64,000 nucleotides of DNA from a virus. Lineage: Duplodnaviria; Caudoviricetes. The stretch covers positions 1-64,000 of the IMG/VR virus record IMGVR_UViG_3300026549_000051; one strand, written 5' to 3'. The notes beneath the pieces were generated by a model. It made no database searches and had not been told where the DNA came from. It worked only from the letters and a program-made list of their open reading frames with translations. The position numbers and the translations under genes were made by a program. Below, piece by piece: positions 3,591 through 51,256 of this stretch (position 1 is its first letter; every line of letters begins with the position of its first letter).

Positions 3591-4049
3591 ATGGATAATT
3601 TAGCTGATAAAATCATCCAAGCTAACGAACAAGAGACAATGCGCAAGGGCAGTGACGACACTGCTCCAGAGGGGTATTACACTGACGACATGGGGATGTG
3701 GGTGGAGCAAGACATCCGCAAGAGCCCCAGTCGTTTCGCGGAGTATGTGTTTGTGCGCTGCCGGAAGCGCAACGAGCATTTATATTATGACACCGACTCA
3801 CTGACGCTATTTAACAGGCACAGAGAGATTATGCCTACCCAAAGGGATATAATCGAGTTAGCGAATCTGCCTGACACGATTTCAACAGCTCAGGCGATAT
3901 GGGTTCATAACAAACTCAAAGAGACCGTCCCTAGGTTGGATAAGAATCGGATAATCATTGCACCGGGGCTAGCCTGGGACATAGAGAAATCGGAGATTGT
4001 TGAGATAAAAGGAAAATATTATACTGTAGGAGGTGAAGATGAGCAGTAG
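3591..4049 (+). CDS. hypothetical protein resembling the helicase N-terminal domain
   Basis: Homologue at 60642; C-terminal IIIAPGLAWD resembles helicase VVRVADTLYWD. Confidence 0.7.
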   Translation: MDNLADKIIQANEQETMRKGSDDTAPEGYYTDDMGMWVEQDIRKSPSRFAEYVFVRCRKRNEHLYYDTDSLTLFNRHREIMPTQRDIIELANLPDTISTAQAIWVHNKLKETVPRLDKNRIIIAPGLAWDIEKSEIVEIKGKYYTVGGEDEQ

Positions 4050-4338
4050 CACGCCAGAGGGGAATTTTAAGAAGAGTTTTTGTTCTAGGTTGAGGAAGCT
4101 CGGATGCACCGTATTCCAGAATCAAGGGGTTGGAGTGCCGCGCGGATTCCCGGATACCTCTGTGCTCTTGCCAGAGGGGCTAACTATTTATATAGAGTTC
4201 AAGGCAAGCAAGCGAGCAAAGTTTCAGCCACTACAGAAGGAGTGGATCAAGAAATTAAATGAAAGGAACTTCTTTGCCTGGGTCTGTTACCCAGAAGTAT
4301 CAGACAAGATCATGGGCGAGATTAGGCGTCTATTATAA
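4039..4338 (+). CDS. VRR-NUC domain nuclease
   Basis: PE-x-x-F, GFPD, IYIEFK, PLQKEW PD-(D/E)xK motifs. Confidence 0.85.
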   Translation: MSSSTPEGNFKKSFCSRLRKLGCTVFQNQGVGVPRGFPDTSVLLPEGLTIYIEFKASKRAKFQPLQKEWIKKLNERNFFAWVCYPEVSDKIMGEIRRLL

Positions 4339-4363
4339 TATCCATGCTATAATTGGTTATGTT

Positions 4364-5029
4364 ATGGATAAAACCTTCAAAAATAAGATTTTGAACCTTC
4401 CGAGGTATACCGGAAAGAAGGTGTCGGAGCATTCGCTATATAGGTGTTGGGCATCTATGAAGAATAGATGTTACAACAAAAACGACAAAAAGAATTATAT
4501 ATGGTATGGTGGCCGCGGAATTAAGGTGTGCGATAGGTGGATCGGCGAAAATGGTTTTTGGAATTTCGTAGACGACATGGGGCCACGGCCGGACGGATGC
4601 TCTCTTGACCGCATAGACCCGAATGGGGACTATACACCAGAGAATTGCAGATGGGCGACGGCTAAAGAGCAGGCTGACAATAGAAGAACGTCATTAAAAT
4701 CGTATATGAATGGGGAATTAGTCACCCCGGCCGAGATGAGCAAGATAACCGGGCTAAATATCGCGACAATAAGGAAAAAGATTAGGGATGGGATGTCTGG
4801 AGATGACATCTCTCTAGTGAAGTCGTCCGGCAAGCCGAGAGGAGTCGTTTGTGTTGAGACCGGAGAGGTATTCAATAGTATTGCAGAGGCCGCGGAGGCT
4901 CATGGAATGAAAGCCCCGACTAGCATTAGTTCTGTTTTGGCGGGTAGAGCCCACAGCGCCTATGGGTTACATTGGAGATATGCAGAAAACGCCGACGAAA
5001 TAATGGGGGAAATAAGGAGGCTCTTATGA
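4364..5029 (+). CDS. HNH homing endonuclease with C-terminal NUMOD-like DNA-binding region
   Basis: W-x-SMKNRC...YGGRGIKVCDRW...LDRIDPNGDYTPENCRWAT; absent from unit 2. Confidence 0.85.
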   Translation: MDKTFKNKILNLPRYTGKKVSEHSLYRCWASMKNRCYNKNDKKNYIWYGGRGIKVCDRWIGENGFWNFVDDMGPRPDGCSLDRIDPNGDYTPENCRWATAKEQADNRRTSLKSYMNGELVTPAEMSKITGLNIATIRKKIRDGMSGDDISLVKSSGKPRGVVCVETGEVFNSIAEAAEAHGMKAPTSISSVLAGRAHSAYGLHWRYAENADEIMGEIRRLL

Positions 5030-46775: not shown

Positions 46776-47483
46776 CTATTTCTCCTTTTTAGGTTTTAAG
46801 ATTTCATTAATATCTACCTCATCGATATCGACTTCACCAGTCTTACCGAGGCGGTTTTTAGCCAACGCAACGTTATCGCTTTCGAGCACCAACTTGCGTT
46901 TGCCTTCGGCATCCTTCTTAAGATAGAAGACGTTATCACACCACTCCACAAATACATTCATGGTGTTCACGTCGATCTTCGGACTAATCTGCTCAACATC
47001 CACACCATCAGCATCCATAATATGCTTCTTATCGGCATGGGCGATGAGGCAAATGCCGTAGCCCTTTTTATTTAATGCCACTAAAGTAGGCAACAACTTT
47101 GTGCGGATATGGTTCTCAAGCACCTGCTTGCCATTACCGTAGCCACCGTTAGAACGGTTAAGTGTTTCCTCGAGGTTGCGGGAGTCAATGCCAGCAGCCT
47201 GTTCTACCACCTTACGCACCATCCAGTCGGTCGAGTCGATAACTAGCGTATCGAACTGACGCTCCTTCGCATGGTACAAGTCGGCGAGGTCTTCGTAGAA
47301 CTTCTTTAAGTCTTGGTATTGCTTGGTGCGTTTGACGCCAAGGTAATTCAAGCCTCCCTCGAAGTCCATAAACAATGGATTCTTGAGCTTCGATGCCAGC
47401 GTAGATTTGCCTACGCCGCTGAGACCATAGATCATTACCTTTGGTGCGGTCAATGTGACACCTTCAATAATGTCTAAACTCAT
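46776..47483 (-). CDS. Sak4-like AAA recombinase
   Basis: IYGLSGVGKST, DFEGG, LVIDS, LIAH, AKNR. Confidence 0.85.
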   Translation of the reverse strand: MSLDIIEGVTLTAPKVMIYGLSGVGKSTLASKLKNPLFMDFEGGLNYLGVKRTKQYQDLKKFYEDLADLYHAKERQFDTLVIDSTDWMVRKVVEQAAGIDSRNLEETLNRSNGGYGNGKQVLENHIRTKLLPTLVALNKKGYGICLIAHADKKHIMDADGVDVEQISPKIDVNTMNVFVEWCDNVFYLKKDAEGKRKLVLESDNVALAKNRLGKTGEVDIDEVDINEILKPKKEK

Positions 47484-47568
47484 CCGAGTCCTTTCCAAAT
47501 TGTATTGTTATTATTTATAGTTTCCCCCTACCTTCATTTTACCATACATATTCGACCATGTGTATGGA

Positions 47569-47710
47569 GCAGATGGGCAATGGAACCAAGAACTTTTTGA
47601 CAAAAAGTTTATCAACTCACGAGGTACAAATGTGAATTTTTTGATGAAAAGTCTATGCGTAAAAGTGAAGGTAATACAACAAAGATTGTAAAAATACGCT
47701 ACCCATCTGC
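47569..47710. ncRNA. Candidate structured RNA (stem enclosing ~125 nt)
   Basis: GCAGATGGG (47569-47577) / CCCATCTGC (47702-47710) in 270-nt intergenic gap. Confidence 0.4.
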
Positions 47711-47770
47711 CTCTAGTTTGTGAAGAACCACCACGCTCTTTAACGCCTGACATGGCACGAAGGCATTTGT

Positions 47771-48139
47771 TTAGTGGAAGAAGCCTTTTGGCTTCGTATT
47801 GTCCGCGATAAGCGAGACCTTCTCGAGAATCTTGTTCAAGACCTCGATGACGATTTCAGCCTGAGCTTCCGTGAAATTGATTTCAAGTGGCGTGGTTACA
47901 GACTCGCTAATTGCCTCTGCAATTCTCTCCCCCTCGGTTTTACTAGAGGTGTTCTTTTGTAGGACAAAAGTTCGATATTCATCAAGGTCTTCTGCCTTCT
48001 TAATACGCCAGAATGTTGACTGGCTAATATTCATAGCTCGCTGGATCTCTCTGCCAGATAAGCCTGTGTCAATTAGTGTTTTGACTGCATTAAAACTATG
48101 CTCGTCAATTTTGCGATATTTACGAACCTTCTTGTTCAT
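47771..48139 (-). CDS. helix-turn-helix DNA-binding protein
   Basis: GLSGREIQRAMNISQSTFWRIK. Confidence 0.8.
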   Translation of the reverse strand: MNKKVRKYRKIDEHSFNAVKTLIDTGLSGREIQRAMNISQSTFWRIKKAEDLDEYRTFVLQKNTSSKTEGERIAEAISESVTTPLEINFTEAQAEIVIEVLNKILEKVSLIADNTKPKGFFH

Positions 48140-48203
48140 TTGTTTTCTCCAATTAAATTAATATTACATTCACTTTTGTTTGTGTTGTTTTAAACATATC
48201 ACA

Positions 48204-48863
48204 CTATTTTCCTTCAGTCAATTCCTCCTCCAATTTCTTGCACCAGTTCTTCTCCGAGAAGTCTGACTTGCCTTTTAAACAGGCGTAGATGTCATCTTCG
48301 ATAGTTCCCACCGACTTTTGTCTTTTGTAGGCGTCTCGCTTCTGCTTGAGCCTAGCATTATGGCGGCACTCATCGCTACAATATTTTGTTGTACCACTTG
48401 GGACAAATTCTTCGCCACAGAAACTGCAACGCGGATAATCGCCAGCTTTTATACGCTTATATGTTTTGGTGTACTTATAGCCATTATTTTTAAGCGACCT
48501 CCTATTTACCTCCCTTCTCCCATTAAGTCTACACTCGCTACTGCAATATGTATTATGTTTCTCATATGGAACAAATTTTTTTCCACAGAAACAACAGTAA
48601 GCTGTTCTTTTGACATACGGTGCTCTAATAGGCTCGTTATTTGCATGCCATTTCTTATGGCACTTCACGCAAAGCCAGGAAACTTCCAGAGGTTTATTAT
48701 AATCGTTATGGTGTGCTTCCACTTTCTCAGTAGAGCCACAGCATTCACACGGCATCTTAGCCATTGTCCCAGACTTAATCGCCTTACGGACTAATGAGTG
48801 AGCCCTGTGCTCAGCCCTGAACTTCATATATTGATCATGCGTTTTCTCTTGTTCTGTCTTCAT
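48204..48863 (-). CDS. HNH homing endonuclease with zinc-finger repeats, fused to a helicase-like C-terminus
   Basis: CECCG...EAHHNDY...WLCVKCH; CxxCG-x-x-F...YCS-x-ECR x2. Confidence 0.85.
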   Translation of the reverse strand: MKTEQEKTHDQYMKFRAEHRAHSLVRKAIKSGTMAKMPCECCGSTEKVEAHHNDYNKPLEVSWLCVKCHKKWHANNEPIRAPYVKRTAYCCFCGKKFVPYEKHNTYCSSECRLNGRREVNRRSLKNNGYKYTKTYKRIKAGDYPRCSFCGEEFVPSGTTKYCSDECRHNARLKQKRDAYKRQKSVGTIEDDIYACLKGKSDFSEKNWCKKLEEELTEGK

Positions 48864-50067
48864 TTTGACACCACACTTTCTCCGAAAAATCTTGCTTATT
48901 CTTTAAGCACCTCATAATATCCTTTTCTATTGTATCACAACAATAACAGTAGTAGAAGAACATCGGCTTAGTTTGCCCGATACGCTTAATGCGACCGCGT
49001 GCCTGTAATGATGTGCTATATGAGTAATTCGGCGATACCGAGCACCAGTAGTGCATGAACTGTAAGTTCAACGCTTCGCCACCACTAGCGTAGTGAGCGA
49101 CCACGATGTCATATTTGCCTATCGTATCAGGTGTAGGTATCTCATGGTGCTTACCATCAATTCGCCATATCTTCGTCCCCTTAGGCAGAGCCTTCTTGGC
49201 TATTTCGCAAACCACCTCTTCCTCTTCAATGTAATTACAGAAGAAGACGCAGTTATCGCCCAGCCCCTCGATGAACTCCGACAGCCACTCTTGCTTCTCC
49301 TTAGTGAAGCATATCTGCCTGAGGTAATGGCACAAGCCCATCGTGGTTTCGATGAACTCGCCATCCTCTTTGGTGCGGGTCTTCATAATCTTGCGATAGT
49401 TCTTTGGGGCTTTGAACTCAACCACCTTATGTGTTTCCTTTGGCAACTCCCTGAACATCTGAGAGGCATCAGGCGTGGTAACAATGTCATCCCACATCTT
49501 CTTCAACTCATCGACCCTTACATAGTGGTCTATCTCTGGGAAGCCTCGGTATGTATGGACTATGGCATAATTATTCATAAAGTCCGTCTTGTGCTTGACC
49601 TTCCCACACACTGTAAAGTATGTAATAAAGTCTTTCCAGTCGTCCCCAGGCGTGGCTGTGTAGCCAGTCCATACTGTGCAATGGTCGCAGATACGACGGA
49701 AGCCATACCCCATACCAGTCGTATATCCCTTGCACTTCTGCACCTCATCGAACGCGAAGGCATAATTGCCGAGTCGTAATAGAGGCAACTGCAATGAATA
49801 TTTATCCAGCTTGTGCCACGAGATTACCTCAAAACTTTCAAGACTGTCGAGCCATTCCTGACCGTTCCATAGCACGGCTTCCTTCTGCATATCACCTGAC
49901 CTAGCCTTAGTGGCTGTTGTAACGATTACAACACGCTTCCTGCCAGTATCTCTCAGCCAGTTAAACATCACGGCAGTCTTACCTGCACCAGTTGGCAGAA
50001 TGCAAATGCGACTCCCAGCGTCAAGATCGGCAACAGCCTGCTCTTGGAACTTATACAGGCTAGGCAT
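48835..50067 (-). CDS. SF2 (SNF2-like) helicase
   Basis: PTGAGKT, DEVQ, TATP, EALNLQ, QARGRIKRIGQ. Confidence 0.92.
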   Translation of the reverse strand: MPSLYKFQEQAVADLDAGSRICILPTGAGKTAVMFNWLRDTGRKRVVIVTTATKARSGDMQKEAVLWNGQEWLDSLESFEVISWHKLDKYSLQLPLLRLGNYAFAFDEVQKCKGYTTGMGYGFRRICDHCTVWTGYTATPGDDWKDFITYFTVCGKVKHKTDFMNNYAIVHTYRGFPEIDHYVRVDELKKMWDDIVTTPDASQMFRELPKETHKVVEFKAPKNYRKIMKTRTKEDGEFIETTMGLCHYLRQICFTKEKQEWLSEFIEGLGDNCVFFCNYIEEEEVVCEIAKKALPKGTKIWRIDGKHHEIPTPDTIGKYDIVVAHYASGGEALNLQFMHYWCSVSPNYSYSTSLQARGRIKRIGQTKPMFFYYCYCCDTIEKDIMRCLKNKQDFSEKVWCQNEDRTRENA

Positions 50068-50386
50068 AGTATTCGCTCTTGATACGAGTTTTCTTCTCTA
50101 AGATAGCACGGACTTCGTCTGATGTATTCGCCTGCATTACCTCAAAGATGAGTTCCTGCATGGCTTGCTCACGGCGTGCCTCGCGTCGGCGTCGGTTGCC
50201 TGATGCATTAGAAGCAATACGCTTCTTACGAAACTCGTCATCAGTATGGTAGCGATTAGTAATGTTCTTTGTGGTCGTTTTTGTGTGTGCCTTACGGCGA
50301 CATTCTTCCGAGCAAACTTGTGGCACTCTGCCACGCTTCTTCTCCACTTCAAACTCTTTGCCACAGATTTTGCATTTAACTAACAT
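50060..50386 (-). CDS. zinc-finger protein
   Basis: CKICGKEF...CSEECR. Confidence 0.75.
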   Translation of the reverse strand: MLVKCKICGKEFEVEKKRGRVPQVCSEECRRKAHTKTTTKNITNRYHTDDEFRKKRIASNASGNRRRREARREQAMQELIFEVMQANTSDEVRAILEKKTRIKSEYYA

Positions 50387-50841
50387 CGTCCGTTCCTTTC
50401 TGCTAGTTCATCTAGCGTATATTTTTGGTCTGATACCATATCTTGGATACACTCTTCCTCAAAGTCGGCGAGTGCATCTGCCAACCAGTCCCTCGCGTAA
50501 TATAGTATATCGCTATACTCTTCATCGGTTAGGTCAAGGTGTTGGTCTTCAATATAGTCTATGAGGTTGCCCTCACAGGCTTGCTCGCAGAGGTCTTCAA
50601 AGTTTTCAAAGTAATATTCAGTATGTCCCTCATCGTCCTCGCCAGCCCCATACTCAGCGTTGGCACGCAACCAACTGCGTAGGTTTTCCATATGTAAAGT
50701 CTTCGCATAAACCTGCTCGCCGATACGCTTGATGTCTGCTTCTTGAACAGCATTATAAAATGCTTTGTCGTACTTATGTGGCTCAGGCATGAGGTCATCA
50801 ATGCCCTCTTTAATCGCCAACAAATCTTTAATCTTGCTCAT
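50380..50841 (-). CDS. acidic hypothetical protein
   Basis: GGAGG RBS; Asp/Glu-rich. Confidence 0.75.
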   Translation of the reverse strand: MSKIKDLLAIKEGIDDLMPEPHKYDKAFYNAVQEADIKRIGEQVYAKTLHMENLRSWLRANAEYGAGEDDEGHTEYYFENFEDLCEQACEGNLIDYIEDQHLDLTDEEYSDILYYARDWLADALADFEEECIQDMVSDQKYTLDELAERNGRC

Positions 50842-51256
50842 CTTCGTTGTCCTCCACCTTATCAATAAACTGCTGTGCTTTGTTATAAAAATCGTCAAAC
50901 ATATCTTGGCACAACTCCAAATGTTCCTGTAAATGTTTTGGCTCGGCTGGGGCAGGGGCAGAAGATGATGATAGTGAAGCCCTAGTCATATCGAAGAGGG
51001 CTTTGTGAATATCGCCCTGTCGCTTGCCGAACTTTGCCATGTGGTTTTCAAGGCTATCGAAACTCCAATGCTCTTCGCCATCTCCCCAACCATTCTCATC
51101 TAGGGGTTCATTGCCTACCTCAATGTCGCAATGCCACTCGCCTTGCCCATCTCGGTTCTGGTCGCTCGCATAGATATAATAATGGTCATAGCGTTTAATG
51201 TCGTTTAATAGTCGGTGCAAGTCTGACACCTTCATTACAATATTCTTATCTTCCAT
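50828..51256 (-). CDS. hypothetical protein
   Basis: AGGAG RBS. Confidence 0.75.
   Translation of the reverse strand: MEDKNIVMKVSDLHRLLNDIKRYDHYYIYASDQNRDGQGEWHCDIEVGNEPLDENGWGDGEEHWSFDSLENHMAKFGKRQGDIHKALFDMTRASLSSSSAPAPAEPKHLQEHLELCQDMFDDFYNKAQQFIDKVEDNEDEQD

Follow-up and report, generated by a model that had tools for sequence, protein, structure and literature searches.

A probable HNH homing-endonuclease cassette that brings a foreign tail to a phage SF2 helicase gene

The window, the first 64,000 nucleotides (nt) of the IMG/VR virus record IMGVR_UViG_3300026549_000051 (Caudoviricetes), which represents a rumen phage, contains at positions 48,204 to 50,067 two overlapping minus-strand genes, encoding an SF2 helicase and an HNH endonuclease, whose predicted products end in related sequences. 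Comparison with close relatives indicates that the endonuclease gene very probably belongs to a free-standing homing-endonuclease cassette, which has entered the 3' end of the helicase gene and brought with it a foreign helicase tail. The features concerned are the following, with P0001 denoting a close helicase homolog and X2, X3, X7 and X19 denoting public runs from which related contigs were taken.

50067..48835, minus strand: SF2 helicase open reading frame (ORF), 410 amino acids (aa), ending in ...FFYY followed by CYCCD...
48949..50067, minus strand: SF2 helicase body, codons 1-373 (through FFYY), attributed to the resident lineage from the P0001 comparison and PHROG 62
48319..48948, minus strand: inserted cassette of 630 nt, comprising the replacement tail and HNH codons 1-182, delimited by the X3, X7 and X19 junctions
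48835..48948, minus strand: apparently foreign replacement tail, codons 374-410 and stop, set off by an abrupt break in similarity to P0001
48863..48204, minus strand: HNH ORF, 219 aa, of which the last 37 aa are KSVG...TEGK
48318..48863, minus strand: HNH endonuclease proper, residues 1-182, with its ATG at 48863 (phrog_2340, phrog_1271)
48645..48749, minus strand: predicted HNH catalytic core with a four-cysteine (Cys4) zinc site, residues 39-73 (alignment A2)
48366..48596, minus strand: two CxxCG...YCSxxC zinc-ribbon repeats, residues 90-111 and 146-166 (Pfam, PHROG)
48204..48317, minus strand: apparently displaced resident helicase tail, 37 codons and stop, in frame with the HNH ORF

The sequence-only reading of this DNA had noted that the helicase and the HNH protein share a C-terminal motif and that the latter carries about 37 aa of helicase C-terminus, and both observations are borne out: 16 of 23 residues are identical between the two C-termini (E = 4e-7, BLASTP, single comparison), and the last 37 aa of the HNH protein match the tail of P0001 at 35 of 37 positions and are protein-identical to the HNH-free X7 tail (rebuilt from the listed differences). 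Because these 37 aa match the tails of helicases that have no HNH gene, the similarity is far beyond chance. The closest of 921 helicase homologs (P0001 and P0003-P0007, 84-96% identical overall, 411 aa) end in FFYY-L-KSVG..., and thus the copy fused to the HNH protein is evidently the resident tail. When the proteins are divided at motif VI, the helicase body of the window differs from P0001 at only 5 of residues 1-373 (99% identical); the similarity then breaks off abruptly, with 18 mismatches among the 37 positions that begin at residue 374. The nearest relative of the tail of the window helicase is that of P0042 (82% identical), the body of which is only 65% identical. The assignment of the LKSVG-type copy as resident and of the CYCCD tail on the helicase as foreign is supported by these protein comparisons, in agreement with the earlier view of the helicase tail as incoming and the HNH tail as ancestral. 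HNH-free helicases resembling the CYCCD tail would have spoken for the opposite polarity; those of P0001, P0003-P0007 and the X3, X7 and X19 contigs carry the LKSVG type.

At the DNA level, the 69-nt core of the two tail copies is identical at 41 of 69 positions (59%), with a longest identical run of 8 nt, and 10 of the 16 shared residues are spelled by different codons; the low identity and the recoding indicate that the copies are not recent duplicates of one sequence. In a 47-sequence alignment, the replacement tail keeps T379, I380, E381, I384, L388, K391, F394, E396 and W399, which are all of the invariant or nearly invariant tail positions. A homology search with the last 45 helicase residues alone gave no candidates, and a degenerate DNA pattern for the CCDTIE.DIM tail had no match in viral contigs. 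The HNH ORF overlaps the helicase gene by 29 nt in a different frame, so that the final 9-10 codons of the replacement tail are also the 5' end of the HNH gene, and its reading frame has no stop codon of its own before it continues into the displaced helicase tail.

Natural alleles with and without the cassette were identified by comparing Logan contigs of the four public runs (X2, X3, X7 and X19, from four studies) with positions 47000-51000. One contig in each of X3, X7 and X19 (three studies) joins 48317/48318 to 48948/48949, skipping 629-630 nt, and in these empty alleles 1-2 nt at the junction complete a Leu codon (CTA, TTA or TTG) to give FFYY-L-KSVG. The fourth study provides a 7.8-kb contig (X2) that spans the cassette from end to end and differs at 86 positions over 2519 nt (~96.6% identity). 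The existence of both natural empty and natural filled alleles indicates that the cassette is a genuine insertion rather than a product of assembly, and bovine gut samples are polymorphic for it. Its presence or absence at one exact site among close relatives is the pattern of free-standing homing endonuclease genes.

At the listed positions of the 114-nt remnant of the resident tail, the window (filled) is the same as X7 (empty), and X2 (filled) is the same as X3 and P0001 (empty), with 8 of the 9 X2 differences in the remnant being common to X3. Two tail haplotypes thus each occur with and without the cassette, which requires either that the cassette was gained or lost more than once at precisely this position or that crossovers took place right at the junction; such a pattern would agree with repeated homing or precise loss. 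The ~150 nt to the left of the junction contain 4 differences in X3 and 4 in X19, which is no excess of divergence, so either co-conversion tracts are short or donors and recipients are alike in this segment.

The interrupted gene is assigned to the SF2 helicases of the phage PHROG 62 type on the basis of its match to the PHROG 62 DNA helicase (E = 4e-51) and of the GxGK, DE and QxxGRxxR motifs, which are invariant in the helicase alignment (A3); Pfam matches to DEAD and Helicase_C are weak. In an AlphaFold2 model of the window helicase (mean predicted local distance difference test score, pLDDT, 91.4), residues 369-376 form the last beta-strand of the second RecA-like domain and are followed by helices at 380-389 and 396-409, with pLDDT of 96, 94, 86 and 76 for successive 10-residue blocks of the tail (residues 371-410). 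The swap junction is therefore predicted by the model to fall within a core strand of the helicase. The tail is kept even in phage helicases at 25-28% identity. Since it belongs to the fold and is conserved in such distant proteins, a helicase ending at codon 373 would very likely be defective. Among GenBank phages, there is no close DNA match to the locus, and the helicase relatives are all less than 30% identical.

The second ORF is predicted to encode an HNH (beta-beta-alpha-Me) endonuclease, with matches to phrog_2340 (endonuclease, E = 1.7e-22) and phrog_1271 (HNH endonuclease), although none of the Pfam HNH models matched it at E < 0.01. Its core has 27,046 relatives at E <= 0.001, and hundreds of GenBank phage genes annotated as endonucleases match this core only. 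C39, C42, H51, H52, D54, C65, H69, H73 and N76 are invariant in alignment A2, as are the cysteines of both zinc-ribbon repeats, and the N-terminus is conserved from residue 1 among homologs. The repeats, which have PHROG matches over both copies and an Ecl1-type zinc-ribbon Pfam match at residues 88-115, may constitute the DNA-binding part of the enzyme. A protein cluster 94% identical to the window HNH (P0121, 26 member sequences) bears the same fused tail, whereas P0123, P0124 and P0126-P0128 lack a helicase tail and terminate instead in a stretch rich in Lys and Arg, which is absent from the window HNH. The viral contigs searched contained no relative of the window HNH protein.

Cassettes of the same type are probably present in other lineages. 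The helicases P0050 and P0073 have bodies that are 99% identical (4 differences) with an abrupt break at residue 375, after which the tail of P0050 is of the YCC type and that of P0073 of the LKTTR type, ending in LADNGLADV. The HNH protein P0122 (65% identical to the window HNH) begins with MQKISKEKAH, and its last 9 aa are LADNGLADV, the resident end of P0073; its first codons read in the +1 frame encode CAKNIEGESS-stop, precisely the sequence in which both P0042 and P0050 end (10 codons). When 120 helicase ends were tested against 9 HNH N-termini for consistency of frame, P0122 with P0042 and P0050 gave the only 2 consistent pairs. On the strength of the frame test and of the LADNGLADV end, the P0122-type HNH gene probably overlaps the YCC tail of P0042 or P0050, as in the window, and enters the remnant of the resident tail of that helicase lineage, and the only close YCC-tailed helicases, P0042 and P0050, probably carry an HNH gene too. 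In a third lineage, the HNH protein P0129 (46% identical to the window HNH) ends in a helicase tail (VTEKTIEQ...NWCINNN...) that is 73% identical to that of L090, a helicase without an HNH gene from a far more remote lineage, and the match starts one residue past the equivalent of FFYY, as it does in the window.

The 80 metagenomic loci retrieved with the HNH alignment have no more than the 60-aa core in common, and just one of them (L011) adjoins a related helicase, without a tail swap. At that locus (L011:1432-3210, plus strand), a helicase 46% identical to that of the window is followed 19 nt after its stop codon by a free-standing gene for a 172-aa HNH protein with a C-terminal core, an arrangement that could be the ancestral state. 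HNH genes seem to have settled repeatedly in the 3' flank of the helicase gene. Elsewhere in the window (4033-5029, plus strand) is an apparent second cassette of like design, in which a 101-aa ORF and an overlapping 256-aa ORF both end in ...IMGEIRRLL (12 of 16 residues, E = 9e-6); its ATG likewise has a GGAG at the unusual spacing of 16 nt.

In the mechanism that is proposed, the mobile unit would consist of the foreign helicase tail together with the HNH gene, inserted one codon after FFYY (codon 374). The foreign tail is in frame with the resident body and, with its conserved residues kept, leaves the helicase complete, while the resident tail has moved downstream, where the HNH frame runs into the displaced codons. 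Alleles that lack the HNH gene would be nicked or cut by the nuclease within or close to the FFYY-L-KSVG codons. In the carrier, 630 nt separate the two halves of this putative recognition site, and the new junction, FFYY-CYCCD, differs in all five adjacent codons; because the rest of the tail is recoded as well (59% DNA identity), the carrier should be immune. The recoding would also leave the two tail copies unable to recombine the cassette out. When a cut genome is repaired during co-infection, the cassette would be copied into it, the helicase body serving as the left arm and the displaced tail, together with the DNA beyond it, as the right arm. Use of the body and the displaced tail as homology arms would account for the persistence of the remnant and for the sharpness of the junctions.

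The anatomy, the alleles with and without the cassette, the foreign source of the tail and its recurrence in further helicase lineages are shown by the sequence comparisons; cleavage, its position, immunity and the way in which the HNH gene is expressed are inferred from them. Several points weigh against this account. The segment could be moved without a nuclease, by ordinary homologous recombination when phages co-infect a cell; the haplotype argument holds for the listed positions only; the cassettes of P0042, P0050, P0122 and P0129 are deduced from protein sequences; and YCC-type tails are also found on P0117 and P0120, which may or may not be followed by an HNH gene. The most serious competitor is passive mosaicism, in which the tail and the HNH gene were acquired together by ordinary recombination and the HNH gene is a passenger, possibly inactive. 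The genomes of this phage group are indeed mosaic, and the sibling genomes of the record are 65-91% identical in patches, but the left break is sharp and falls one codon after FFYY in two pairs matched at 99%, the remnant tail begins at the same position in a third lineage (P0129), the catalytic residues of the HNH protein are invariant, and both tail haplotypes occur with and without the cassette. Presence and absence at one exact site is the signature of a homing element, and passive mosaicism is considered unlikely.

Less probable still is that the HNH protein is a domesticated accessory replication nuclease, with its fused tail binding a partner or surface of the helicase tail. In-frame fusion to a tail is found in three HNH lineages (window and P0121, P0122, and P0129), and the remnant is intact in all of them; however, phages whose helicases are 99% identical do without the gene, the shared junction is explained if a single insertion was inherited and then spread by homing, and P0122 retains only 9 aa of tail. 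That tail copies flank the HNH gene on both sides might also suggest a local tandem duplication, in which insertion of the HNH gene duplicated the helicase 3' end and one copy diverged in place, but the downstream copy is near-identical to HNH-free tails, whereas the upstream copy is 59% identical to it in DNA with 10 of 16 residues recoded, and groups with the tails of helicases that have 65% identical bodies. Such divergence of one copy beside a 99% identical body is not credible, and this explanation can practically be dismissed. Two other kinds of element were sought at the locus and rejected: a group I intron, since no Rfam family matched at E <= 1 beyond chance, and an intein, since the window helicase has no Hint domain and its ORF ends at its own stop codon.

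The replacement tail had also been credited by the sequence-only reading with a promoter and a ribosome-binding site for the HNH gene, which would explain the oddness of the CYCCD sequence. Two short features are concerned.

48937..48929, minus strand: TGATACAAT, a candidate extended -10 element (unverified) in the replacement tail, fitting TGnTAnAAT
48883..48880, minus strand: GGAG in the FSEK codons, 16 nt before the HNH ATG, a doubtful Shine-Dalgarno sequence

Both are present in the sequence, but their role as signals appears weak. An extended -10 element (TGnTAcAAT) in the replacement tail is possible; the -35 sequence associated with TGATACAAT matches the consensus at only 3 of 6 positions, for which reason a consensus promoter scan did not list TGATACAAT, and promoter-like matches in the region are no commoner than in shuffled sequences. 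The GGAG lies 16 nt from the start codon, compared with the spacing of 4-10 nt (mode 7) over ~60 genes of the window phage, and it sits in the conserved FSEK codons, which are present in the resident tail as well. A dedicated HNH promoter in the replacement tail is therefore doubtful, and the HNH gene is most likely co-transcribed with the helicase gene. With a start codon 29 nt before the helicase stop and a poorly spaced Shine-Dalgarno sequence, its translation is probably low or coupled. The HNH start codon does lie in the extension of the new tail, so that signals are located there in a trivial sense only. Nor is expression needed to account for CYCCD: these codons abut the insertion site and would have to differ from LKSVG if the nuclease recognises the site, which is an equally good reason.

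Another promoter-like site (TTGACT-17-TATGTT, with TG before the -10 element) lies at 48221-48193 on the minus strand, over the last codons of the displaced tail and upstream of the helix-turn-helix (HTH) gene (48139). It is a single consensus match that is not significant compared with shuffled sequences; if it were a real promoter, there would be a reason to retain the end of the resident tail.

The same-strand neighbors of the two genes are a small zinc-ribbon protein upstream, and downstream the HTH protein, an AAA_24 ATPase and more early genes; the related viral contigs L001 and L002 have the identical gene order minus the HNH gene. The small upstream gene (50060-50386, minus strand), with one CxxCG...CSxxC zinc ribbon and an Arg-rich segment, resembles the DNA-binding repeats of the HNH protein (phrog_1271, E = 2.5e-6). 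Being conserved in the HNH-free relatives L001-L003, it is a resident gene and not a remnant of a nuclease gene.

A second kind of mobile element has entered the helicase gene in relatives of the window phage.

49985-49988, minus strand: intein site in the Walker A codons of relatives, with no intein in the window (X2 contig; P0002, P0025, P0045, P0103)

The X2 contig has an intein insert of 833 extra nt at this site in addition to the HNH cassette, so that selfish elements of two kinds share a single gene, and the helicases P0002, P0025, P0045 and P0103 (688-699 aa) contain an intein of ~277 aa that ends in ...THN before TGAGKT; three of them, P0002, P0025 and P0103, have a recorded Hint-type domain (PF14623). 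Since relatives host an intein too, the helicase gene is evidently a hotspot for selfish elements.

The 111,102-nt record from which the window was taken consists of two diverged sibling phage genomes arranged head to tail (window 1-64000 plus 64001-111102), at an offset of about 55-59 kb and with DNA identity of 64-91% in patches. The helicase of the second genome (414 aa, L008:1495-2739, minus strand) has an ordinary tail and no HNH cassette. It is directly followed by a 71-aa ORF (L008:1278-1493, minus strand, corresponding to about 104230-104445 of the record, G000) rich in K/R/Y/N/E repeats that include KYFDKYRENNREKLREY; given its likeness to the segments rich in Lys and Arg in relatives of the HNH protein, this ORF may be what is left of an endonuclease gene.

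Phage homing endonucleases are known from intergenic positions, from introns and inteins, and from insertions that split a gene in two. A cassette with a recoded replacement end shows how a nuclease encoded by a free-standing gene can, with no splicing, aim at the best-conserved region of an essential gene. Tail replacement could tentatively be regarded as a general third way, beside introns and inteins, into conserved essential phage genes, with a captured tail that is functional, either in tethering the nuclease or in borrowing the resident stop codon and downstream signals. Annotation pipelines will be misled by such cassettes, because the gene ends that they create are chimeric and the 'fusion' ORFs spurious. 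In phage populations the cassettes show exactly where recombination boundaries lie, and natural filled and empty pairs reveal which site a new HNH specificity probably recognises.

The cassette resembles several known systems in part. Some integrating elements restore the 3' end of the tRNA or protein gene that they enter with a substitute carried at their attachment site. They are similar to the window cassette in that insertion is into the 3' end of a gene, which a substitute end keeps intact; the difference is that they use site-specific recombinases and a near-identical replacement, whereas an endonuclease with homologous repair and a recoded tail is proposed here. Inteins and group I introns likewise invade conserved sites of essential genes and preserve function, but the window cassette involves neither RNA nor protein splicing.

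Phage T4 has seven free-standing endonuclease genes that are promoter-less cassettes read from upstream promoters, and the free-standing Seg and Mob genes of T4-like phages undergo intronless homing with co-conversion of flanking markers; they sit between genes or split genes, as mobE does in nrdA of Aeh1 and mobA in gene 39/60 of T4 (PMC2988022). The window cassette is similar: its nuclease gene is free-standing and lies beside or within a replication gene that is essential, it is probably promoter-less, and it presumably spreads by break repair with co-conversion; like the Mob proteins, its nuclease combines an N-terminal HNH domain with C-terminal DNA-binding modules of the zinc-finger type. 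Unlike it, none of the T4-like genes is described as supplying a new end for its target gene and taking over the displaced one. This layout is absent from the T4 review (PMC2988022) and from a study of nuclease genes at recombination boundaries in phage ICP1 (PMC10448857), which between them cover intergenic, intron-borne and gene-splitting insertions. Within the limited full-text collection consulted, which affords no proof of novelty, the tail-swap layout was found in papers on fungi only and not in the literature on phages.

The closest known system is the mobile ORF (mORF) 'gene hybrid' of fungal mitochondria, represented by atp6, atp9, cox2 and nad3 of Glomus and by the cited case of atp6 in Allomyces macrogynus (PMC3630166). 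The native C-terminus of these hybrids is closest to that of element-free relatives (91-98% identical in nt), and the inserted and native C-terminal copies share 64-81% DNA identity (PMC3630166). There are differences: the fungal elements encode LAGLIDADG or GIY-YIG endonucleases in mitochondrial respiratory genes, whereas the window cassette encodes an HNH endonuclease in a helicase gene of a double-stranded DNA phage; the fungal mORF is often in phase with the upstream gene, whereas the phage HNH gene is separate, overlapping and in another frame; and the phage nuclease captures the displaced native tail in frame. In both systems, however, an endonuclease ORF arrives with a foreign C-terminal segment in phase with the core of the resident gene, and the native C-terminus, most like that of element-free relatives, is displaced downstream (the two copies being 59% identical in the phage). 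Judged by sequence comparison, the helicase locus has two properties of the fungal gene hybrids, an in-phase foreign C-terminus and a displaced native one.

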